Assembly (NCBI GenBank): GCA_948485625.1
Contig: CAOMRW010000010.1
Location: 25 to 64,024 of the forward strand
From: an uncultured Clostridia bacterium
GTDB taxonomy: Bacteria > Bacillota > Clostridia > TANB77 > CAG-508
Length of the DNA: 64,000 bases
Direction: 5' to 3'
Under the pieces are notes generated by a model that was given only the letters and a program-made list of their open reading frames with translations, did not search any database and was not told the DNA's origin. The position numbers were made by a program, and so were the translations under genes. This document shows positions 22,404 to 58,321 of this stretch, piece by piece. The number at the start of each line of letters is the position of its first letter. The first letter of the stretch is position 1.

Positions 22404-23525
22404 ATGACTCAAAATAGATTTAATCAATTGCCAAGGTATGAAAAAGTTTTTAGTAGATTAGATCAAATTTTAAATCAATATATAAAATTATCTACTGATA
22501 GAAGTATACTTAAATTTAATTCTTCTCAAAAAAGTCAAAATGAAGATGGATTTAGTAATAGTTTAGTTGAAGATGATTTTAATGCTTTTGAATTAGTAAA
22601 TGAAATAAGGTCTTCTTATCTTGGTAGAGATTATTTGGAGGGTGAAATTGGTTTGGTTGATGGCCAAGACCAATATGATGGTATATTTAATACTACTTTA
22701 TATATGCTTATGTCAAATAGATTAGGTAAATTATATAAAGGTGCTCTTAATAAAACTTCTAATCATGATAAAGATATAAAGAATAGTTATAAAACTTTGA
22801 TGAATTCCAAAAATGATGCAATTGTTAAATTAATTTATAGCTTATTTATTTATAAAGAAACTGAAACTGATAATGATTTTTATTATGGTCATTCTATAGA
22901 TAATAATGGAAAAGATAGACTTATTATTGATTTACCTGTATATGGTCAAATTAGTGTACACTTTGGTTCTAAAGAAAATTTGGAAAATATAAAGTATATA
23001 GCTAAACAAAATATAGACTTAATTTTAAAAAGAAAATTAGAGTTAGGTCAAATAACTGAAGAACAATTTAATGAAATTAAAAGCAAAGCAGATAGTGAAG
23101 GTATATTCCCTAAATATACTGGTAAATTGTATGAATATAGTTCAGCAATTCCTCTCGATTATTGTGGTGAAAAATTTAAAATGGCTCAAAAAGATTTAAA
23201 ATTGTCTGGAAAAATGGTAAGTGATATAAGTGATGATGATATTGAAAGAATAAGTGCAAATAATAAATATAATAGTAGAGAATTATATTATTTTGCTATA
23301 AAAAGTGACTTTTCAAAACAACAGTTAGAAAAATTATCTAGTCTATTACAAAAAAGAGATAAGAAAATTTTGCAAACGTCTAAAAAGAAAAATCATTCTC
23401 AACTCGACCCAAAAAGAATTGGAAGAAAAGCTGTTAGCTTAACATCTGCAGAAGAAAGGCAAATTGTTGACAATCATGAGGTAATGTCTGACTCTATTAC
23501 CCCAAATCATTCTAAGGAGAAATAA
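22404..23525 (+). CDS. Hypothetical protein (373 aa), no recognisable domain
   Basis: ORF with a strong RBS (taggaggattttaatATG). First gene of a plus-strand trio. Confidence 0.6.
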   Translation: MTQNRFNQLPRYEKVFSRLDQILNQYIKLSTDRSILKFNSSQKSQNEDGFSNSLVEDDFNAFELVNEIRSSYLGRDYLEGEIGLVDGQDQYDGIFNTTLYMLMSNRLGKLYKGALNKTSNHDKDIKNSYKTLMNSKNDAIVKLIYSLFIYKETETDNDFYYGHSIDNNGKDRLIIDLPVYGQISVHFGSKENLENIKYIAKQNIDLILKRKLELGQITEEQFNEIKSKADSEGIFPKYTGKLYEYSSAIPLDYCGEKFKMAQKDLKLSGKMVSDISDDDIERISANNKYNSRELYYFAIKSDFSKQQLEKLSSLLQKRDKKILQTSKKKNHSQLDPKRIGRKAVSLTSAEERQIVDNHEVMSDSITPNHSKEK

Positions 23526-23527
23526 TT

Positions 23528-23995
23528 ATGGTAAATATATACACAAATGAGGAATATTCTAAATCATATACAGAATTAATTGAAATATTAAAATACTTCT
23601 CAAAATCTGATTTAATGAAGATACCAAAAAATGTATTAACAAGATATATTAGAGATAAAGATAATAGTTATAATTTTTCTTATAATCCTGATTTAGATAT
23701 AGATGAACAAAGTGTTTCAAAATTAACTCAAATATTACTTGCAAATTTATATATTAAATATTTTGCAGATGAAAATGAACAAGAATATATAAAAAACAAG
23801 GATAAAGAAGAATTATCTTTAATAGAAAAACAGAAGCAAGAAGAATATAATATTGAAACTATATTTAATAAGAGAAAAGAAAAATTTACAAATACAAACA
23901 ACTCTGGAATAACAAGCCTAACAGTTGTTCCAGATAAAGAAAATTTATTAAAAAGAGTTTTTTACAAAATTAAACAGTTATTTCATTTGACATAA
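23528..23995 (+). CDS. Hypothetical protein (155 aa)
   Basis: ORF whose ATG lies 2 nt after the upstream stop (aggagaaataattATG). Translationally coupled arrangement. Confidence 0.55.
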   Translation: MVNIYTNEEYSKSYTELIEILKYFSKSDLMKIPKNVLTRYIRDKDNSYNFSYNPDLDIDEQSVSKLTQILLANLYIKYFADENEQEYIKNKDKEELSLIEKQKQEEYNIETIFNKRKEKFTNTNNSGITSLTVVPDKENLLKRVFYKIKQLFHLT

Positions 23996-48170: not shown

Positions 48171-48898
48171 TTATCTTTCTGTAGAATCTTCATAAGTATT
48201 TTCTATATCTATATTCTTAGTCATTATGGATGGTTCGTCAATATCTCCTAAAATAAAAGCATTTCTATGGTTGGCAGTCTCCTGTTTAAGCATTTGTGTT
48301 AATTCTGGTGTAGAACAATAAATTCTTTTTAATTCTTGACTAAAGGCTACTTTATTAAAATTTGGAGCTCTTAAAATATTTTTTAAACTTTCATGTTTTT
48401 CCAAATCTAGTGTTGATGGACACCATGTTAAATCAATTTTATCACCAAATACTTTTTTAAATTGTCTCATTGCTCTACTTCCATGTGTACATGTTGTTAC
48501 AATTATTGCTGATTTGATTTTCATACCTGTTGTTAGTTCTTCTTCAAAAATATTTTTACAAAATTCTGCATTTTCTTGTGTGCTTGTTGACATTGCCTCT
48601 GTTAAAACGTCTTCTGGTTTTACCCCAATTTCGTTAAGAAATTCTTCTGTTAGTATTGATGTATGTTGTTGATAATTTTGCTATTATTCATATATTCTTC
48701 TGATATAGGCTTCATATAACCCTTTATGTCTCTATTGTTTGCTATTCCTCCTGTAAATATTATTTTTTTACTATTCCTAATCTATATAATTCAAAAGCTT
48801 TAATAGCTATTTCTCTAGTAGTAATTTCTATTTCTAAATAATTTTTTAATACTATATTCTTGAGATTCTTATCAAATTCAAATACAGCATATATATCA
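48171..48898 (-). pseudogene. DUF218 (YdcF/ElyC-like) family gene disrupted by a frameshift
   Basis: The listed ORF (…STSTQENAEFCK…) is only the C-terminal part. Upstream in another frame lies …LGIVKKIIFTGGIANNRDIKGYMKPISEEYMNNSKIINNIHQY*, followed after a frame change by LTEEFLNEIGVKPEDVLTEA-MSTSTQEN. No clean start codon was found. Confidence 0.65.
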
Positions 48899-49609: not shown

Positions 49610-49950
49610 TAAATCAATCCTTTCTAATTGTAATAATACTACTAATATTTCTTGTTCAAGTTTTATAGCATTCAAACTACAATCCTATTCAATTATCTTT
49701 TAATCTTGTTTTTCTTCTTTACAATGCTAATCATACCACGCCATTCTTTCTTTTTCAATACTTTTGCCTGGTGTGACGATTTTACTTAATGGAGCGATAT
49801 TCTTACAAGTTACGAACTCTCTTGTTCTCTTTCTAAAGGTATTATATATAATTTATTGTTGAATTTCAATAGAAATATAGAAAATATTGTTCTTTTATAG
49901 TATAATATTTTCAAATTTAGACTTTAATTTATAGGTGGTGATTATATATA

Positions 49951-52900
49951 ATGGATGAACAACTAAAGGATAAAATATATAAAATATTAAATGAATTGCC
50001 AGATGAAAATTCATGGCTTGACTATAAGGAAATTCCTTACGAAAAAAATAAAAGAGCAGATTTTATTATAGATTTATGTGGCTTTTTAAATTCAAAAGAA
50101 AGTCATGGAAAAGATAAATTTATTATATTTGGAATTAGAAATAAAACAAAGGAAACATTTGGTATAAAATCAAAACCAATGCAAGATGATGAGTATTATC
50201 AACAATTAGCAGATATTATACAACCCAGACCATCTATTGAAACAGGTACTATCAATTTTAAAATAAAAAATAATGAAATATTGTTTGGATATATTTGGAT
50301 ACCAAAAGAAAATAATAATAGAGTATATTCAATAGCTAAAACTTATCCAGAAATAAAAAGAGGACAAAAAGAATCAATTAGTGACGAAATAAAATCTATA
50401 GTATATGCTTCTACATCATATATTAGAAAGGGAAGTTGCAATTATCCATTATCAGAATATGACCGACGTGAAATATATGAAATGGATAGAGAAAATAGTA
50501 TTAATATTACCACAATGCCACCAATATATTATAATCTTAATACTTCAGGTGAAAATGATAAGATATTAAAAGCCTCAATTATCTTTGGTGGGTGGGATGA
50601 AGAAAATGAAAATGATAAAAATGTTATAAGTAATTTTATTGGCAAACCATACGAAGAATGGATTTTACTACTAAGAACAATGCTTAAAGATGAAAATAAC
50701 ATTTTAGAATTTAAAAATAATAAATGGAAAATAAAGAATAGAGACTATAGTATAAAAAAGTATGCACCATATTTTTTTAAAGATGAATTGGACTTATTTA
50801 AAACATTTGCTATAAATATTCTTTCAGAGAGAAATCCAAAATTTGATTTAGAATCAGACAAAAGATTTATGGCAAATATTTATAAAAAGAATACAAAATA
50901 TTCGGAGTTTCTTAGAAAATCTGTTGCTGAAGTTCTGCCGATTATAACATCAAATTATAAGGAATTTAAAAATTGTAAAAATGATGCTGCTAATTTACCT
51001 TTAATTGTTGTTAGAAAGGTTTTAGAAAATAACGATTGGGAAATCTGGGCAAGCATAGATAAACTTTTACCTTTATTAGCAGAAGCTGCTCCTGAAGAAT
51101 TTCTAAATCAACTAGAAGATAAACTAATAAATAATGTTGAAACAATTAGAAAAATGTTTAGCGAAAATGAGTATTATGTTAGTACTTATAATTATTCTAC
51201 TGGGTTATATTGGGCTTTAGAATTAATTGCATGGGAATCTAGAAACTTGATTGAAGTATGTATGCTACTATGTAAAATATCGGCTTTTGATAAAAAAGCC
51301 ATAGAATATATAGCGAATATTATACTACCATGGTATCCTCAAACAAAAGCACCTATTGAAAATAGAATGTTGGTAGTTAAAAATATATTAAAAGAGAGTC
51401 CAGATACTGGGTGGGAACTTTTAAAAAACTTAATGCCTGGTAAAATAACCATAGCAATGCCATCTTACAAACCAAAATGGAACAATACTATTGAAGAAAA
51501 TGAAAATAAGGTTATTCAAAGTGATTATTGGGAACAAATCAATACATATATTGATTTAGCAATTACTAATTCCAAAACAAATACTAAAAAATTATGTGAT
51601 TTAATTGATATAATTGATAATGTTCCAAAAGATTTGTTTAATAAATTAATTAACAAATTATCTAGTACTGAAATTAAAAAAATTAATGAGAACAGAAAAT
51701 TTGTTATTTGGAATCATCTAGAGGACTTAATTATATGGCATAAAAGGACTGAAAAGTCTAAAAATTCATTACCAGAGGAAGCAATAAACAAACTTGAATT
51801 ACTATCATCTGATTTAAAGCCTAATAGCATACTGATATTTGCCAAAAGATATTTTAGAAAAGATACATGGCACTTAATAGATGACAGAACAGATTATACA
51901 ATTGGTGAGAAAAAATTACATGAACTGCAAATAAAATTAGTACAAGACATAATATCATTAGGAGATGAAAAAATTATTAATTTTTCTAAAACTGTTGAAG
52001 ATTCGTATATAGTTGGGGTTTGTGTGGCTGAACTTAAGGCTGAAAAACAATTAGAAAAACAAATACTTAATTGCTTAGAAAATAAAAATGCTAATTTAAT
52101 AGAATTTAGTAAAGGATATGTGTATAAACAGTTTTCTTTAAAGGGTTATCCTTGGATAAATGAATTAGGTATTTCAGATTGGAATAAACTTAAAAGAATG
52201 AATTTGCTATTAGTATTACCATGTACTAGAGAAACCTTTAACTTAGTTGAAGAGGTAATTGAAAAAAATGAATCTGATTATTGGAAAAAAGTAGATATAA
52301 GATTCGTAACAAATATTGAAGAATTAAATTATGCTATAGAAAAATTATTATGTGTTGGACGACCTGATAGAGCATTGTGGATATTAACATCAATGATTCA
52401 TGAAGATAAAAATTGTGATTATAATAAAGAGCTTGCCATAAAATGCTTAAAAGAAATGCTCCATTATCAAGAAAAAATTAATAATATGGAATCATATGAT
52501 ATTACTCAAGTAATTAGCAATTTACAAGAATCTAATGTTTCAAAAGACGAATTGTTTAATATTGAGTGGATATATTTACCATTATTAAATGGTGAAGAAT
52601 ATCGTCCTAAGACTATTGAACAGGCTCTTGCTAACGATCCAAGTGTATATAATGACATATTATGCCTTGCCTATAAGCCACACTCATTAGAGACAAATCC
52701 TCAAAAAGTAGATGAAAAAGTTGCAATTAATGCATATAGATTATTAGAACAATGGAATTTAGTACCAGGTCTCGAGAATGGCATAATAAATAAAAAGAAA
52801 TTAAATATCTGGTATAACCAGATGGTAGAAATCTGTACAGAATCAGATAGACTTGAAGTCGCATTATCTAACTTTGGAAAAGTTCTATTTCATTCACCAA

Positions 52901-53190
52901 AAAATAAAGATGGATTTTGGATTGATAAAAATGTGGCAGAGATTTTAAACATGGAAAATGCAGATATAATAAGAAATGGATTTCATATTGAAGCTTATAA
53001 TTCTCTTGGTGTTATAAATTATGATTCTGAAGGAAGTGTTTTTGAAAGTAAAGCATTAGAATATAATCAGAAAGCAGAAGAATCTGACAAAGAAGGATTC
53101 TATAGACTAGCAAAAGAAATGCGAAAACTAGCAAATACATATAAGTATAAAGCTGAAAATACAAGAGAGCATTACTTTGATTATGAATAA
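49951..53190 (+). CDS. Large (1079 aa) protein: N-terminal AlbA_2/Schlafen-like domain followed by about 900 aa of alpha-helical repeat-like sequence
   Basis: N-terminus ENSWLDYKEIPYEKNKRADFIIDLCGFLNSKESHGKDKFIIFGIRNKTKETFGI resembles the AlbA_2 (divergent AAA/Schlafen) signature E..L[DE][FY]K…A[FL].N…GG.I.[FI]G[IV]. No Walker motifs were seen. RBS ataggtggtg. Confidence 0.6.
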   Translation: MDEQLKDKIYKILNELPDENSWLDYKEIPYEKNKRADFIIDLCGFLNSKESHGKDKFIIFGIRNKTKETFGIKSKPMQDDEYYQQLADIIQPRPSIETGTINFKIKNNEILFGYIWIPKENNNRVYSIAKTYPEIKRGQKESISDEIKSIVYASTSYIRKGSCNYPLSEYDRREIYEMDRENSINITTMPPIYYNLNTSGENDKILKASIIFGGWDEENENDKNVISNFIGKPYEEWILLLRTMLKDENNILEFKNNKWKIKNRDYSIKKYAPYFFKDELDLFKTFAINILSERNPKFDLESDKRFMANIYKKNTKYSEFLRKSVAEVLPIITSNYKEFKNCKNDAANLPLIVVRKVLENNDWEIWASIDKLLPLLAEAAPEEFLNQLEDKLINNVETIRKMFSENEYYVSTYNYSTGLYWALELIAWESRNLIEVCMLLCKISAFDKKAIEYIANIILPWYPQTKAPIENRMLVVKNILKESPDTGWELLKNLMPGKITIAMPSYKPKWNNTIEENENKVIQSDYWEQINTYIDLAITNSKTNTKKLCDLIDIIDNVPKDLFNKLINKLSSTEIKKINENRKFVIWNHLEDLIIWHKRTEKSKNSLPEEAINKLELLSSDLKPNSILIFAKRYFRKDTWHLIDDRTDYTIGEKKLHELQIKLVQDIISLGDEKIINFSKTVEDSYIVGVCVAELKAEKQLEKQILNCLENKNANLIEFSKGYVYKQFSLKGYPWINELGISDWNKLKRMNLLLVLPCTRETFNLVEEVIEKNESDYWKKVDIRFVTNIEELNYAIEKLLCVGRPDRALWILTSMIHEDKNCDYNKELAIKCLKEMLHYQEKINNMESYDITQVISNLQESNVSKDELFNIEWIYLPLLNGEEYRPKTIEQALANDPSVYNDILCLAYKPHSLETNPQKVDEKVAINAYRLLEQWNLVPGLENGIINKKKLNIWYNQMVEICTESDRLEVALSNFGKVLFHSPKNKDGFWIDKNVAEILNMENADIIRNGFHIEAYNSLGVINYDSEGSVFESKALEYNQKAEESDKEGFYRLAKEMRKLANTYKYKAENTREHYFDYE

Positions 53191-53208
53191 AAAAGGAGAA
53201 AACTAGCA

Positions 53209-53853
53209 ATGGAAATTATTAAAACTATAGATTTATGGACAGAACAACACAATAACCATTATGAATGTTTTAATGGCGCTTTTGTAGATGGATTTGAAAA
53301 TAATAAAGCTCCATTTGATACATATAAAATTATTAAAAATTGTAATTGTATAATAACAGTTAATAATCCAGATGTTAATATTAACAACAAGCATAATGCT
53401 ATTATTTTTTATAAAAATAGTAGACCAGTTAGATTAGTTGTTATAAATAAAAATACAGATATTGATAAATGCATAAAAGTAGCACTAGAGCAATATTTTG
53501 AAAATTCTATATTGAAAGATTACTATGTCAAATATAATATAAAGTCATCTATTATAGATATGAAAGAAGAATCAATTTTTAAAATAACTGATAACACTAA
53601 AGTAGAAACAGATGTAGGATCTTGTGATAGATGGAAACTTTTATATAATATGCTAAAAGGTAGCTATACAGAAAGTAATACTTCTTATGGAAATTTTGAA
53701 AGTGATAGATATGAATTTATGCCTAATTTGTTTATAAAATATGAACTTAATACAGACACTGAAAAGTTTGAAATAGAGCATAAATGTGCGTTTATAAATA
53801 CTTTAAAGACTAGATTAATACCTATACAAGAGAATTCACCATTAACTAAATAA
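53209..53853 (+). CDS. Hypothetical protein (214 aa), orphan
   Basis: The ORF begins 18 nt after the upstream stop, with RBS aaaggag. No recognisable domain. Confidence 0.55.
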   Translation: MEIIKTIDLWTEQHNNHYECFNGAFVDGFENNKAPFDTYKIIKNCNCIITVNNPDVNINNKHNAIIFYKNSRPVRLVVINKNTDIDKCIKVALEQYFENSILKDYYVKYNIKSSIIDMKEESIFKITDNTKVETDVGSCDRWKLLYNMLKGSYTESNTSYGNFESDRYEFMPNLFIKYELNTDTEKFEIEHKCAFINTLKTRLIPIQENSPLTK

Positions 53854-53874
53854 GTTTGAAAGGAATTTGTTGAT

Positions 53875-54858
53875 ATGTTAGAAGAATTTTATGAGAGAAT
53901 AAGTCTTAAATCAGAATTATCTGATTTATCAAAAATGATATGTGAAAAATATAATTTAGGTCAATATATATCAGAAGAAATCATATTAGTAGGATATGAA
54001 GATTTTAACTTTATATTGACGACTGATATTGGCAAATTTTGTGTAAAAGTATTTAACAAAGAAAGAACTTATGAGGATGTAAAAAAGTATATTGATAGAA
54101 TAGAATTAGCAAATTCACTTAATATTAATACTCCAAAAGTATATAATTGTGATAATAGTACATTATGCGAAATAGTATTGAATGATACAAAGTTTAGATT
54201 ATGCGTATTTCAATATATAGATGGAAAGAGTTTTTATGATTTAAACGAAATACCAACTGAAACAGAAATTAAAAATATTATTGAGCAAATGGCTCATATT
54301 CATAATGCAAAATTAGAATCTGATTTCATCTATGATAAATGGACAATAACAAATTTTGTAAAGGAGTATGCAGAAAAAGGAAAATATTTAGATAATAAAT
54401 ACAATAAAATTTTTGAGTCTTTAGTCCATAAAATTGCAAGTGTAAAATTTGAAGAACTACCTACATCTTTTGTTCATGGGGATATTATTAGTTCAAATGT
54501 TATGAAAGATAGCCGTCATAAACTATGGATTATAGATTTTGCAGTATCTAACTATTTACCTAGAATTGTTGATTTAGCTGTAACTTCTTGTAATTTATGT
54601 CTAAATCCTGAAAGTATTGATAAAACAATAGAAAGTACAAAAATGATATTAGCTGAATATCAAAAGTATAATAAATTGACTGATTATGAATTAGTATGTT
54701 TTCCGCTATTTTACGATCTTGCTAATGCAATGGGAATACTACAAATTAGTTATTTAAATAGTCTTGGAGAAACATCAGAAGAAGATGCTTTTTGGCTATC
54801 TGAAAGTGAAAAAGGATTAAGTTTTAGTACGCCTGATTTTTGGAAAAATATTCTTTAA
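53875..54858 (+). CDS. Phosphotransferase-family (APH/choline-kinase fold) kinase-like protein
   Basis: Brenner-type catalytic loop FVHGDIISSNVM and the following WIIDFAVSN (DFG-equivalent). N-lobe FCVKVF lysine context. Confidence 0.75.
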   Translation: MLEEFYERISLKSELSDLSKMICEKYNLGQYISEEIILVGYEDFNFILTTDIGKFCVKVFNKERTYEDVKKYIDRIELANSLNINTPKVYNCDNSTLCEIVLNDTKFRLCVFQYIDGKSFYDLNEIPTETEIKNIIEQMAHIHNAKLESDFIYDKWTITNFVKEYAEKGKYLDNKYNKIFESLVHKIASVKFEELPTSFVHGDIISSNVMKDSRHKLWIIDFAVSNYLPRIVDLAVTSCNLCLNPESIDKTIESTKMILAEYQKYNKLTDYELVCFPLFYDLANAMGILQISYLNSLGETSEEDAFWLSESEKGLSFSTPDFWKNIL

Positions 54859-54924
54859 TATATAATTATTAAAAGAAGACAATATTACAATTATAACCAA
54901 TTGCATTATTGTCTTTTTATGTAT

Positions 54925-55818
54925 TTACAAATTTATAATTTTTTCTATAATTTCTATATCTTCAATTTTATTGATTGCAAAACATTTTTTGCCTAAATCC
55001 TTTATAGAAGCTCCTAGATGGTACATTTCTTTATTGTCTATTACAATAAATCTATCGTGAAATTTATTAGTTTTAGCAACTTTAAGAATAGGATATTCTT
55101 TATTGAATTTTTTTATATCTAAATTTTCAATATTACTTTTGTCAGATGTTAGGATAACAACTTCTACATTGCTTTTCTTTTTAGCTAACATTTTCAAAAC
55201 ACTATCATCAATATAATTATCTATAATTAAGATTTTCTTATTTGCTTTTTTAATAATATCTATTATTATGCTATATGCATCATATATTTGACCATCAAAA
55301 AATATTCTTTGTTTGATATTTTCTTCCAGTTGAAGTTGATTAAAGACTTCGTCAAATTTTTTATCATGTTCTAATAATTTATGTTCTACACTAGTCAGTC
55401 TTTCAAATACTTGTCCATTAATCATTAAAAATTTTCGCATTTCAATAAATGCTTTCATAATATTTACACTAACACTTACTGCGATATCACTTTTTAACAA
55501 AGCTGATAACATTGCTATACCTTGTTCAGTAAATACATAAGGTATATATTTTCTATGTTGTCCTCTTCCATTTTCGTTTAAGGTGACAAATTGGCACCTT
55601 AAAGATTCAAATTCATTTTCATTCAATTGAAAACAAAATTCTTCTGGAAATCGCTCTATATTTCTTTTTACCACACGATTTACATATTTAGTCTCACAAT
55701 GGTATATATTTGCCACATCACTATCTAGCATAACCTGTTTACCTCTTATTGTGTATATTAAGTTTTTTATATCTTCGATAGTCAATTCATTTTGAATTGC
55801 CAATTTATTTTCTTCCAT
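54925..55818 (-). CDS. ORF6N (KilA-N-like) domain DNA-binding protein
   Basis: IYTIRGKQVMLDSDVANIYHCETKYVNRVVKRNIERFPEEFCFQL…QHRKYIPYVFTEQGIAMLSALLKSD is the canonical ORF6N block. The C-terminus carries FHDRFIVIDNKEMYHLGASIKDLGKKCF. The likely start is MEENKLAIQ at 55818. Confidence 0.8.
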   Translation of the reverse strand: MEENKLAIQNELTIEDIKNLIYTIRGKQVMLDSDVANIYHCETKYVNRVVKRNIERFPEEFCFQLNENEFESLRCQFVTLNENGRGQHRKYIPYVFTEQGIAMLSALLKSDIAVSVSVNIMKAFIEMRKFLMINGQVFERLTSVEHKLLEHDKKFDEVFNQLQLEENIKQRIFFDGQIYDAYSIIIDIIKKANKKILIIDNYIDDSVLKMLAKKKSNVEVVILTSDKSNIENLDIKKFNKEYPILKVAKTNKFHDRFIVIDNKEMYHLGASIKDLGKKCFAINKIEDIEIIEKIINL

Positions 55819-55849
55819 GATTTCACATCCTTTTCTTACTCTATACATT

Positions 55850-56197
55850 CTAAAACATTTGTTCTTCAATGTCAAGACTTTTACAATTTTTAATATTAAA
55901 ATTTATACTATTGAAAAGATACAATGCAACTTTATTTTGCTGTGCTGAATCCATTTCCATAATTTTAGAGGAAACAAAAATTGTATAAGGATAGTTTGCA
56001 AAGTTAACAGTAGTAGTTCTGTATTCTATATTAATTCCTTTTAGCAAGTTATCAAAATATTTATACATTTCTTTTTTATCATATTCTAAATTAGTATGAC
56101 TGTAATTATCACACATACATATTGCTAATCTTAATTTATTTTCTACATCCATATCTTTTATTATATCTATTACATAATTTAATTTTTCATCATTCAT
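55850..56197 (-). CDS. Hypothetical protein (115 aa)
   Basis: ORF only. It sits upstream of, and is co-oriented with, the ORF6N gene. Confidence 0.45.
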   Translation of the reverse strand: MNDEKLNYVIDIIKDMDVENKLRLAICMCDNYSHTNLEYDKKEMYKYFDNLLKGINIEYRTTTVNFANYPYTIFVSSKIMEMDSAQQNKVALYLFNSINFNIKNCKSLDIEEQMF

Positions 56198-56281
56198 ATT
56201 TTTTAGTTCCTTTCAATTTTTACTTTTTGGGGTATGGGCTGTAAAACCCATATTGAAATTTGTGCAAGAGTACAAATTCAT

Positions 56282-56342
56282 TGCTTGCTGGGACACAAAT
56301 TTTGCATTTGGCGTATACACAAATGCAGTGCTTGCTGGGACA
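56282..56342. repeat. Direct repeats TGCTTGCTGGGACA (x2, 47 bp apart) flanking an 8-bp-stem palindrome, in a GC-enriched spacer
   Basis: 56282-56295 and 56329-56342 are identical. TGCATTTG…CAAATGCA lies at 56303-56327. Additional small palindromes lie at 56231-56280. Confidence 0.8.
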
Positions 56343-56399
56343 AGGATTTGCAAATTCCAAAATATTGCATTTTTTCTTGTGCCATTTTTGACTTCATTT

Positions 56400-58184
56400 T
56401 TATAAAAATTCTGATGGGATCCTTGGTATTAATGTTAAGTAATCTACTATATTTTCGTTTTCAATATAAGGACAATTTATAATTCCACCATCATAAAAGT
56501 TTTGTTTTAGTAGTTCATTATATATTACTAAAGTAGCATTATCGTACTCGTTATTTGCAATTTTTGTATTAGAAAACACAAAATAATCTTCTTGTAATTT
56601 TTCTAATTCTTGTTTGTTAATTGCTTCTTTATAATGAAATCCAACATTATTATTTTTCAGTATTTCATATAAATAATTGATGTAGTCTGTACTAATTTTT
56701 GATATAAATTCTTCTGTGAATTTTATATTTGTTATTTCAATATTGTAGTTTTTATCTCTTTTAATTTCGATGCAATCTATTAACCTTTTAATCAATTCTT
56801 TCTTTGATTTTCTATTTAAACTCTCAAAAATAAATGAAAAACTTAATTTGTTTGTGAAAATAAATTCATCATTTTCGGTAGAATAATCTAATTTTTTTAA
56901 TAGTTCTATTGTATATTCTTTAAAGTCATTATTAGGATCAATTTGCTTTCTTTTCTTATTTAAGTTTTCTATTTCTTTCTTGATACTATCATTTTTATTG
57001 TTAATAATTTCAACATTTAAAGTAGAATCTAAATATAAATCTACTAATTTTTTCTCTTGCATTTTTAGCTTGTCAATAGCTTTTTCTATATCTTTAATAT
57101 CCTTTGTTTTGGTTGAATTACATACTATAATTTCATTATCCATATCATACATATACCTTGTTAATTCATTTAAAACTCTCGACAATTTCTCCTCAATTTT
57201 ATCTGAACTATAATGTATTCCTTTTGATTTGCAATTAGGATTTTTGCAAGTTAAATGATAATATACTTTTTCTTTTGGTGTTCCACTATATTTAAAAGAG
57301 TTAGTAGAAGATAAAATCTTGCTACAAGTAGGACATCTCACAATACCAGTAAATAAGTGAATATGCTCTCCATAATTTGAATGCTTATTTCTTTCTAAAA
57401 CTTTCCTTGTAATATTCCATGTTTCTATATCTATAATTGGCTCGCAATAGTTTTCGACTCTTAATATATCTTGTGGTTTTCTACAATATTTACCATATTC
57501 AAATATGCCAATATAAATAGACTTAGTTAGTATTTTGTAAACTCTATCACTTGTCCATTTACCTTGTTTTAGATAAGAATTGTTATCTCTCATAGTTGTT
57601 GCAATGCTTCTTGTAGAATTTCCCTGCTTACATAGTTCAAATATTTCTTTAACTACTTGTGCTTCAATAGACTCTATTTCTAAATGACCTGTTTCACTAT
57701 TTCTAATATAGCCATAAGGTGCTTTAGCTGGGTGCACCTTTTCAAGAGCCATTTCTTCCATAGCACGTTTGGTTCTTGCTCCAATTTCTTTTCGTTCTCT
57801 TTGCCCAAATACTAAATTCATTCCAAATATCATTTCACCATTAGCAGTAGACACATCATAAGGTTCTAATATTAACTCTATTTTGACATCATGTTCCTCA
57901 CAATAGTTTAAAAGCCAAAAACCGTCATAATTATTTCTTGTTAATCTATCTACTTTGATAGCAACTATTACTTCGATTTTGTGCGATTTGATATCTTTTA
58001 GTAATCTTTGCATTTCTGGTCTCATTAAGTCTTTTCCAGAATGCCCTGCATCATTGTATACATCTACAATATCATAATTGTTTTTCTCACAATATTCTTT
58101 TATCATTCGTAGTTGTGAATCAATAGAATAGCCATTATCTCTTTGGTCATCTGTTGATACTCTTACATAAACTCCACATCTCAT
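56400..58184 (-). CDS. Large serine recombinase (resolvase catalytic domain + recombinase domain + zinc ribbon + coiled coil)
   Basis: N-terminus RCGVYVRVSTDDQRDNGYSIDSQ (catalytic Ser), …VAIKVDRLTRN, recombinase domain, Cys cluster CPTCSKIL…CKNPNCKS. 594 aa. Confidence 0.9.
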   Translation of the reverse strand: MRCGVYVRVSTDDQRDNGYSIDSQLRMIKEYCEKNNYDIVDVYNDAGHSGKDLMRPEMQRLLKDIKSHKIEVIVAIKVDRLTRNNYDGFWLLNYCEEHDVKIELILEPYDVSTANGEMIFGMNLVFGQRERKEIGARTKRAMEEMALEKVHPAKAPYGYIRNSETGHLEIESIEAQVVKEIFELCKQGNSTRSIATTMRDNNSYLKQGKWTSDRVYKILTKSIYIGIFEYGKYCRKPQDILRVENYCEPIIDIETWNITRKVLERNKHSNYGEHIHLFTGIVRCPTCSKILSSTNSFKYSGTPKEKVYYHLTCKNPNCKSKGIHYSSDKIEEKLSRVLNELTRYMYDMDNEIIVCNSTKTKDIKDIEKAIDKLKMQEKKLVDLYLDSTLNVEIINNKNDSIKKEIENLNKKRKQIDPNNDFKEYTIELLKKLDYSTENDEFIFTNKLSFSFIFESLNRKSKKELIKRLIDCIEIKRDKNYNIEITNIKFTEEFISKISTDYINYLYEILKNNNVGFHYKEAINKQELEKLQEDYFVFSNTKIANNEYDNATLVIYNELLKQNFYDGGIINCPYIENENIVDYLTLIPRIPSEFL

Positions 58185-58321
58185 AAAATTACCTCCTACT
58201 TTACCTGTGAATTTTTTAAGGTTTTGTATACCAAAATTTTAAAAAAACTTAAAAAAATTTTATCTTTCTATATGTTTGCTCAGAAAAGTACGTTTTCGCA
58301 CCCCTAATTTAGGAAAAAAAC

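Follow-up and report, generated by a model that had tools for sequence, protein, structure and literature searches.

The subject of this work is a stretch of 64,000 nucleotides from an uncultured Clostridia bacterium (GenBank assembly GCA_948485625.1, contig CAOMRW010000010.1, positions 25 to 64,024 of the forward strand), hereafter called the window, and within it three adjacent genes at positions 49951-54858. All three lie on the plus strand. Gene 1 (49951-53190) encodes a protein of 1079 amino acids (aa), gene 2 (53209-53853) a protein of 214 aa, and gene 3 (53875-54858) a protein of 327 aa. The gaps are 18 nucleotides (nt) between genes 1 and 2 and 21 nt between genes 2 and 3, and the ribosome-binding sites are of the AAGGAG or AAGGAA type. 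No terminator-like site on the plus strand was found between the three genes, and their co-transcription is plausible from this arrangement. A motif scan found no Walker A motif in any of the three proteins. The three genes form the cargo side of an integrative serine-recombinase element of approximately 8.9 kb (49790-58730). A first-pass annotation of this DNA had described three co-directional, tightly spaced genes with their own ribosome-binding sites, an AlbA_2/Schlafen-like gene 1 with no NTPase motif, a gene 3 with the signature of the aminoglycoside phosphotransferase (APH) fold, and an adjoining ORF6N protein and large serine recombinase. The open reading frame (ORF) calls, the gaps, and the Pfam matches agree with all of these points. 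It had also read the trio as one undescribed anti-phage system. The analysis below leads to a different reading, in which gene 1 is a self-contained immune protein and genes 2 and 3 are separate cargo.

The N-terminal part of gene 1 (aa 1-185; 49951-50505, plus strand) is a head of the Schlafen/AlbA_2 nuclease type, recognised by a Pfam match and by the motif E19-x4-D24-x-K26. The match to SLFN_AlbA_2 (PF04326) covers aa 19-166 and scored 32.1 bits against a cut-off of 25.3, and it was the only Pfam match of the protein. The same domain is present in the gene 1 homologues P0090 and P0091. The motif of gene 1 reads E19-NSWL-D24-Y-K26 and fits Ex4(E/D)xK. Among the gene 1 homologues, E19 and K26 are invariant and D24 is conserved in at least 90%; the Ex4(E/D)xK motif stands at the same position in every one of them (21/21), down to 32% identity. 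When a profile of the head alone was compared with the PDB, only the nuclease domains of SLFN13, SLFN11, and SLFN14 matched, with the motif in register (E..EFK). Single-sequence searches of solved structures gave no match for any protein of the trio. The Schlafen head of gene 1 was also found with a different tail on Staphylococcus plasmids, and gene 1 itself was not found in the phage record collection.

Mammalian Schlafen proteins restrict viruses by cutting tRNA. SLFN11, SLFN13, and SLFN14 belong to the same nuclease-domain family as the gene 1 head and carry the E…E/D.K motif in register with it. They differ in architecture, having a two-lobed nuclease domain followed by a linker and a helicase, whereas gene 1 has one head of ~180 aa. 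In prokaryotes, the pSlfn family has been defined by the Ex4(E/D)xK motif alone (Perez Taboada et al., Nat Microbiol 2026, PMC13056530). That paper describes pSlfn nucleases as fused to many sensor domains, of which 17% are unannotated, and places 70% of them within 10 kb of known defence genes; RorSlfn5 and EcoSlfn7 are examples, and the cases tested there defend by phage-triggered tRNA cleavage. In a second paper, a Schlafen protein of Enterococcus lactis with an unannotated C-terminus is described as conferring broad abortive infection (PMC13552941). Gene 1 resembles the pSlfn proteins in being a single polypeptide in which a PF04326 head with Ex4(E/D)xK is fused to a large non-catalytic domain, and in its location, on mobile DNA and in the company of defence genes. 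As described for the E. lactis protein, the C-terminal part of gene 1 lacks any Pfam domain. Two differences from the pSlfn proteins were noted: the head of gene 1 is N-terminal, and its fusion partner is a HEAT-like solenoid of ~880 aa, whereas the fusions given in the main text of PMC13056530 are HisKinase, HTH, DUF5929, Ig-like, DUF262, and TBP-like.

By analogy with these proteins, gene 1 would most likely be a single-gene abortive-infection tRNA nuclease of the pSlfn kind. The view that the system is undescribed holds in part. Gene 1 falls into the pSlfn class published in 2026 (PMC13056530), and the giant solenoid that accompanies its head is an undescribed partner domain. The roles given earlier to the proteins, with the giant as a sensor and the kinase as the effector, do not fit. 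The Schlafen nuclease head of gene 1, which bears the catalytic motif, is itself an effector domain, so that a kinase effector is not needed.

The remainder of gene 1 (aa ~199-1076, ~880 aa; 50545-53190, plus strand) is predicted to be an all-helical HEAT/ARM-like solenoid. The AlphaFold2 model of gene 1 had a mean predicted local distance difference test score (pLDDT) of 85.4 and a predicted template modelling score (pTM) of 0.53, with an alpha/beta head to residue ~185 and a helical body at ~199-1076. A Foldseek search with the whole gene 1 model was dominated by generic solenoids, namely CAND1, transportins, importins, and FANCI (E ~1e-4, TM-scores 0.15-0.28), and the solenoid region matched phrog_18693 (PHROG 18693) with E = 1e-87. 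At least three further N-terminal heads are found joined to this solenoid (P0092-P0120; plasmid matches H21-H40), in organisms from Firmicutes to Proteobacteria. Two unannotated heads of ~300 and ~390 aa occur in numerous bacteria, both environmental and cultured (among them Niallia and Carboxydothermus), and helix-turn-helix (HTH) heads are found on Rhizobium and Shewanella plasmids (e.g. NC_017580.1 12500-16063 and NC_009999.1 152-4264). A relaxed Pfam search of the alternative heads gave nothing credible.

The surroundings of the gene 1 family are rich in defence genes. Within 5 kb of full-length gene 1 relatives lie type I and type III restriction-modification genes, SoFic, integrases, and recombinases, together with matches to the candidate families PDC-S04 and PDC-S13 and to mad2. 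One gene 1 relative is flanked by Fic, DUF5677, and Endonuclease_NS_2 genes. At least four type I specificity subunits are encoded next to solenoid proteins that lack a Schlafen head, and on a Shewanella plasmid the solenoid protein adjoins Abi, SieB, and a small recombinase. In qualitative terms, gene 1 resides among defence genes both through these relatives, which lie near restriction-modification genes and SoFic, and through the Gabija and TIR genes that take its place in sibling elements.

These sibling elements were reached via gene 2 relatives, and the window DNA was compared with eight close ones. Homology begins at 49790, ends at ~49850-49926, is interrupted across the whole of gene 1, and starts again at ~53180-53193 to continue to 58730. 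It restarts just before the ribosome-binding site of gene 2, with 88-92% identity from there up to the right end. The interrupted part is a slot with changing content. In L014-L016 and L033 the slot holds GajA and GajB (Gabija); in L017-L019 and L022 it holds a CAP12/Pycsar-type TIR protein (PF10137, E = 1e-37); in L011-L013, L021, L023, and L056 a membrane protein of 195 aa; and in L020 a 199-aa protein without an identified family. The element in L022 is inserted at the same tRNA-Thr as the window element and carries TIR, gene 2, and a PNPOx-like gene. The place of gene 3 is taken by a PNPOx-like gene in L021, L022, and L024. From the other direction, a gene 1 relative in L097 shares the left end of the window element (window 49790) and is followed by serine hydrolase and methyltransferase genes. 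Gene 1 relatives at 72-77% protein identity retain their own flanks only; downstream of the relative in L009 come a 73-aa ORF and a NUDIX gene, and downstream of the one in L181 comes a 530-bp gap. Gene 1 is a cassette exchanged into a slot just inside the left end of the element. Recombinase elements with such a swappable slot for Gabija, TIR, or Schlafen genes offer a practical marker for defence genes in poorly studied low-GC gut bacteria.

The co-occurrence of the three genes was examined in two censuses. The gene 1 census comprised 80 metagenome loci with gene 1 relatives, 53 of which have at least 1.5 kb downstream. The gene 2 census comprised 80 loci with gene 2 relatives at 55-97% identity in a collection of one genome per species. 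Gene 2 was present in 0/80 of the gene 1 metagenome loci and gene 3 likewise in 0/80, and gene 1 was found near gene 2 relatives in 0/80 of the genome loci. Seven contexts of gene 1 relatives were checked singly, and genes 2 and 3 were in none of them; gene 1 relatives at 44-77% identity have unrelated genes downstream. The complete trio recurs only in L177 and L178, which are copies of the same element, with identities to the window of 98% for gene 1, 93% for gene 2, and 88% for gene 3. In both copies the frame of gene 3 is broken after codon 24 (L177 4660-5639, L178 4254-5233) and gene 2 is intact. L177 and L178 come from two samples of one study, and the break is either a pseudogene or an assembly error. 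The trio is not conserved as a unit elsewhere, and the claim of the first-pass annotation that it forms one undescribed system is not upheld. The first-pass annotation had itself named a lack of co-occurrence outside this genome as a refuting result; by that criterion a three-gene system is refuted, as there is no co-occurrence outside copies of the same element. The results showed that genes 1, 2, and 3 are independently shuffled cargo and not one system. Operon-like tight spacing on a mobile element can arise by cassette shuffling.

Gene 2 (53209-53853, plus strand) is an independently mobile, Cys/His-rich cargo gene with no family or fold match. Its protein had no match in Pfam, NCBIfam, PADLOC, PHROG, or the PDB sequences. 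It is an orphan, as it had been called, only by annotation: 882 relatives are present in the databases, with 127 representative clusters at 50% identity, and the family has nine invariant Cys/His residues. The AlphaFold2 model of gene 2 had a pLDDT of 82.5. Foldseek searches of this model against the PDB and BFVD gave nothing better than E = 0.06, with TM-scores of ~0.1-0.2; rows for STING and RNase H among the results were regarded as noise. Gene 2 was absent from the phage and plasmid collections. Its neighbours vary widely, with SDR genes in 18 loci and APH genes in 17, and also ABC-F, serine hydrolase, PNPOx-like, NUDIX, MBL-fold, GNAT, and histidine phosphatase genes. The only annotatable fusion is P0246, in which a gene 2 relative is joined to a GNAT acetyltransferase. 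A role of gene 2 as part of the element backbone was considered and rejected, as a recombinase lies within 10 kb in only about one quarter of the gene 2 loci. Gene 2 therefore stands out as a compact, highly conserved, and highly mobile protein whose confidently predicted fold matches nothing known.

Gene 3 (53875-54858, plus strand) is a facultative cargo gene for a predicted small-molecule kinase of the APH fold (Pfam APH, E = 5e-16). Its signature consists of HGDIISSN at residue 201 and IDF at residue 220, which is the HGDxxxxN…IDF signature shared with APH enzymes and with homoserine kinase type II (ThrB_alt). It differs from both in scoring far below the curated cut-offs and in lying on mobile DNA beside unrelated small enzymes. 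The scores against the NCBIfam models of homoserine kinase type II were 72.1 against a cut-off of 271 and 63.1 against 255.9 bits, and the score against APH(3') (APH_3p) was 15.6 bits against a cut-off of 205. The only PDB match of the gene 3 profile was the homoserine kinase 2ppq (E = 7e-6). With scores below the cut-offs and a location on mobile DNA, gene 3 was rejected both as a housekeeping homoserine kinase and as a known resistance gene. A match to Pfam TCAD9, a conflict-system kinase, reached 22.1 bits against a cut-off of 40 and covers only 45 residues around the catalytic loop, and a match to ZorA in PADLOC (18 bits) was judged spurious. In the phage and plasmid collections, gene 3 had only distant relatives, namely actinomycete phosphotransferases. 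Some kinase relatives (P0419, P0421, P0427, P0429, P0430, and P0480) are fused to S-adenosylmethionine (SAM)-methyltransferase or serine-hydrolase domains. The enzyme types fused to relatives of genes 2 and 3 are also the usual neighbours of both genes. These fusions and neighbours hint at a shared small-molecule chemistry of the relatives of the two genes. The most economical reading is that genes 2 and 3 belong to a pool of small enzyme genes (SDR, GNAT, NUDIX, serine hydrolase, MBL-fold hydrolase, and methyltransferase) shuffled among the elements of low-GC gut Firmicutes.

Taken as a whole, we believe that the locus is probably an element of ~8.9 kb with a slot, in which gene 1 is a self-contained pSlfn immune protein and genes 2 and 3 are separate cargo. 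The element is inserted at the GCTCCA 3' end of tRNA-Thr, and the slot inside its left end holds gene 1. The proposed mechanism is modelled on RorSlfn5 and human SLFN proteins: the solenoid would keep the Schlafen nuclease off until a phage-derived protein or another ligand binds. The freed nuclease would then cut tRNAs, translation would be shut down, and the infection would be aborted. Genes 2 and 3 probably share a transcript with gene 1 for no other reason than that they lie downstream of it. The anti-phage character proposed earlier for the whole trio would apply in part: gene 1 is defence-like, and genes 2 and 3 are separate cargo.

Several observations weigh against this reading. The matches of the head profile to the Schlafen structures are weak, and the similarity of SLFN11, SLFN13, and SLFN14 to the gene 1 head is marginal (E = 0.04-0.5). 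The third acidic residue of SLFN13 and SLFN11 (third Asp, in GVDD) aligns with R63-N64 (GIRN) of gene 1, and this position is variable among the gene 1 homologues (D, E, or N). PADLOC 2.0 gave no match to gene 1. A nuclease activity and a defence role are ascribed to the gene 1 family by analogy. The fold matches of the modelled solenoid are generic, so the putative role of sensor is assigned by architecture only, and some solenoid relatives with HTH heads are annotated as regulators or HigA. The evidence from defence neighbourhoods is qualitative and aggregated over cluster representatives: neighbours of gene 2, sampled at random, gave fewer PADLOC family matches (164) than either set of neighbours of gene 1 (439 and 302), but as the sole control they are a rough one that still held defence genes (AbiLi and GajA/AriA-like ATPases). 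The spacing of 18 and 21 nt and the retention of the trio in copies with 98% identity leave room for a coupling of the genes in this lineage.

Other explanations were compared with the one we prefer. The model of the first-pass annotation, in which the giant would detect infection, with the 214-aa protein as its partner or adaptor and the APH kinase as the effector, accords with the tight co-directional spacing, the separate ribosome-binding sites, the lack of an internal terminator-like site, the location on a mobile island, the recurrence of the trio in L177 and L178, and the faint TCAD9 match of gene 3. It is nevertheless highly improbable. The genes do not co-occur beyond copies of the same element at 98% identity or more, siblings swap gene 1 for unrelated defence genes and keep gene 2, gene 3 gives way to a PNPOx-like gene in three loci and is frameshifted where gene 1 is 98% identical, and an effector domain is already present in gene 1. 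The trio is not a new three-gene defence system, and a false lead has been removed. It is also unlikely that gene 1 is a nucleic-acid-binding regulator or scaffold, whose AlbA_2 head would bind DNA or RNA and whose solenoid would recruit partners, for example in the control of the element or of host genes. Names given to relatives in the source records ("putative DNA binding domain-containing protein" or "ATP-binding protein") point this way, as do the HTH-headed solenoid proteins annotated as transcriptional regulators or HigA-like antitoxins and the lack of conservation of the third acidic residue of mammalian Schlafen proteins in the gene 1 family. Against this stand the preservation of Ex4(E/D)xK in all 21 homologues down to 32% identity, the Gabija or TIR defence genes that otherwise hold the gene 1 slot, and neighbourhoods rich in restriction-modification, Fic, and Abi genes; moreover, pSlfn proteins bearing this motif have been published as tRNases activated by phage (PMC13056530).

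We also considered whether genes 2 and 3 are a true two-gene module beside gene 1, in which a kinase and a substrate-sharing partner would act together, for example in the modification of xenobiotics or antibiotics. APH genes, scored within 10 kb at E < 1e-5, are among the top two neighbours of gene 2 by frequency and adjoin it in 17 of the 80 genome loci, usually 20-28 nt downstream and in L042 and L044 upstream; the remaining 63 loci have no APH gene by this measure. The pair is kept across element types whose recombinases are only 30% identical, and relatives of both are fused to small-molecule enzymes (gene 2 to GNAT, APH to methyltransferase or serine hydrolase). On the other hand, APH relatives at 79% and 61% identity occur without gene 2, beside Q_salvage or beside GNAT, Sel1, and serine hydrolase genes. 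An extra gene of 150 aa separates the two genes in L014-type elements, gene 3 is frameshifted beside an intact gene 2 in L177 and L178, and no known resistance model was matched (APH(3'), 15.6 against 205 bits). On balance, such a module is doubtful, though conceivable. A looser partnership of genes 2 and 3 is possible; the data do not require it.

Returning to gene 1 as a pSlfn immune protein, we tentatively propose a broader view, which we regard as possible and short of likely. The solenoid may be the hallmark of a widespread and as yet unrecognised family of immune sensors, each a single protein, that swaps its heads (Schlafen, HTH, and two unannotated ones of ~300 and ~390 aa), and the elements at tRNA CCA ends may be a dedicated shuttle with a slot for defence cargo. 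Members of the solenoid family range from gut Firmicutes to Shewanella, Rhizobium, Niallia, and Carboxydothermus, and one of the unannotated heads belongs to proteins of PHROG 18693. If the solenoid is a phage sensor, it would be a new sensor class for Schlafen immunity, reused with other heads across many phyla.

The recombinase-bearing mobile island proposed earlier is borne out, and its limits are now set at 49790-58730. The left end (49790-49849) consists of the junction repeat TGGAGC (49790-49795) and a conserved arm of ~60 bp with the motif TTACGAAC; it was found by DNA comparison and is 95% identical to L011 7186-7245. Short motifs of the TTACGAAC type lie near both ends of the element, in inverted orientation at the right end. 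The left junction TGGAGC…TTCTTACAAGTTACGAACTC was located in 11 loci, and the left flanks that directly abut it include at least five unrelated ones. The right end (58682-58730) consists of an inverted repeat (58682-58694 / 58706-58718) and TGGAGC at 58725-58730, and the DNA homology to L011 stops at 58730. A tRNA-Thr (CGT) was identified by ARAGORN at 58725-58800 on the minus strand, and its 3' GCTCCA end is the integration target. TGGAGC was present at both junctions in all elements whose ends were read (5/5). Right junctions coincide with the GCTCCA 3' end of a tRNA, which is tRNA-Thr in the window and tRNA-Gly in L012 and L014; in L015 the right junction is a TGGAGC site outside a tRNA. 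The empty tRNA-Thr site, as deduced, reads ...ACTTAA-TGGAGC-CAATAAGC... In a comparison of L014 with L015, a segment of 9108 bp was 99.9% identical and the flanks were unrelated.

The right arm carries four minus-strand genes. An ORF6N-domain protein (54925-55875; Pfam ORF6N, E = 3e-33) is covered along its whole length by a match to PDC-S05, a candidate defence family of PADLOC (E = 2.7e-120); it has further matches to PHROG anti-repressor families and is conserved in sibling elements. It is followed by a protein of 115 aa (55850-56197), which has 77-92% identity in siblings and had no match in Pfam, PADLOC, or PHROG. The large serine recombinase (56400-58184, 594 aa) has the Pfam domains Resolvase (E = 3e-33) and Recombinase (E = 6e-17); its match to Zn_ribbon_recom was weak and below the cut-off (20.1 against 25.3 bits), and its best NCBIfam models were CcrB, CcrC, and XisF, all below their cut-offs. 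This recombinase is presumably the integrase and excisionase of the element, as judged from its domains. A protein of 94 aa (58322-58606) lies at the right end and has 61-86% identity in siblings by tblastn. The order of the right arm in the element family is gene 2, a variable gene, ORF6N or Mob, a small ORF, the recombinase, and a small ORF.

A domain search found no relaxase domain in the window element. In L014-type siblings, a Mob_Pre relaxase occupies the position of the ORF6N protein. The elements resemble Tn4451/Tn4453-like elements, streptococcal integrative and mobilizable elements (IMEs), and cassettes of the staphylococcal cassette chromosome (SCC) type, all of them carriers of defence cargo in Firmicutes, in their terminal large serine recombinase, small size (~9 kb), and exchangeable cargo, and also in the Mob_Pre relaxase of sibling copies and in CcrB, CcrC, and XisF as best models, although these are below cut-off. 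The window copy differs in having an ORF6N protein in place of a relaxase. To our knowledge, a target at the tRNA CCA end with a 6-bp TGGAGC repeat is not typical of any of these three groups, and tRNA 3' ends are, as far as we know, more typically the targets of tyrosine integrases. The element is of an ordinary carrier type with an unusual target site.

Some further observations concern the surroundings of the left end. Approximately 36 bp directly left of the element (49754-49789, …TGGTGYGACGATTTTACTTAA) recur in L017, L022, L056, L177, and L178 and are diverged in L014. This recurring stretch could be due to a tandem accretion of elements or could be a conserved tRNA trailer. In L014, a second element with recombinase, TnpV, and NikA lies just upstream of the left junction, and L056 has an additional copy of the 115-aa gene 2 kb upstream. 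Upstream of gene 1, a consensus scan found a promoter-like site (TAGAAA-17-TATAAT; 49878-49906, plus strand), which may serve as a promoter; such consensus matches were no more frequent than in shuffled sequence. The site sits in the part of the left arm that is common to the siblings, which is conserved to ~49906.

In the window, the trio is the longest plus-strand block. It had been described as the sole long one, which is incorrect, as further plus-strand blocks are located at 22404-23995 and 41904-43118. GC and AT skew change sign across 50-55 kb, which is expected because a plus-strand block lies there in a mostly minus-strand window. The element is flanked on one side by the tRNA-Thr and an isoleucyl-tRNA synthetase gene, and on the other by genes for a class-I glutamine amidotransferase and FtsY. 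The interval from FtsY to the element contains a 140-aa ORF (48171-48593, minus strand) whose match to the DUF218 profile is confined to the C-terminal half (66-119 of 133); this ORF is possibly a gene fragment. The best models of the isoleucyl-tRNA synthetase (59912-63112, minus strand) are of the MupA/MupB type (mupirocin-resistant, eukaryote-like), at ~1000 bits with cut-offs of 1900, and the protein passes the general ileS model.

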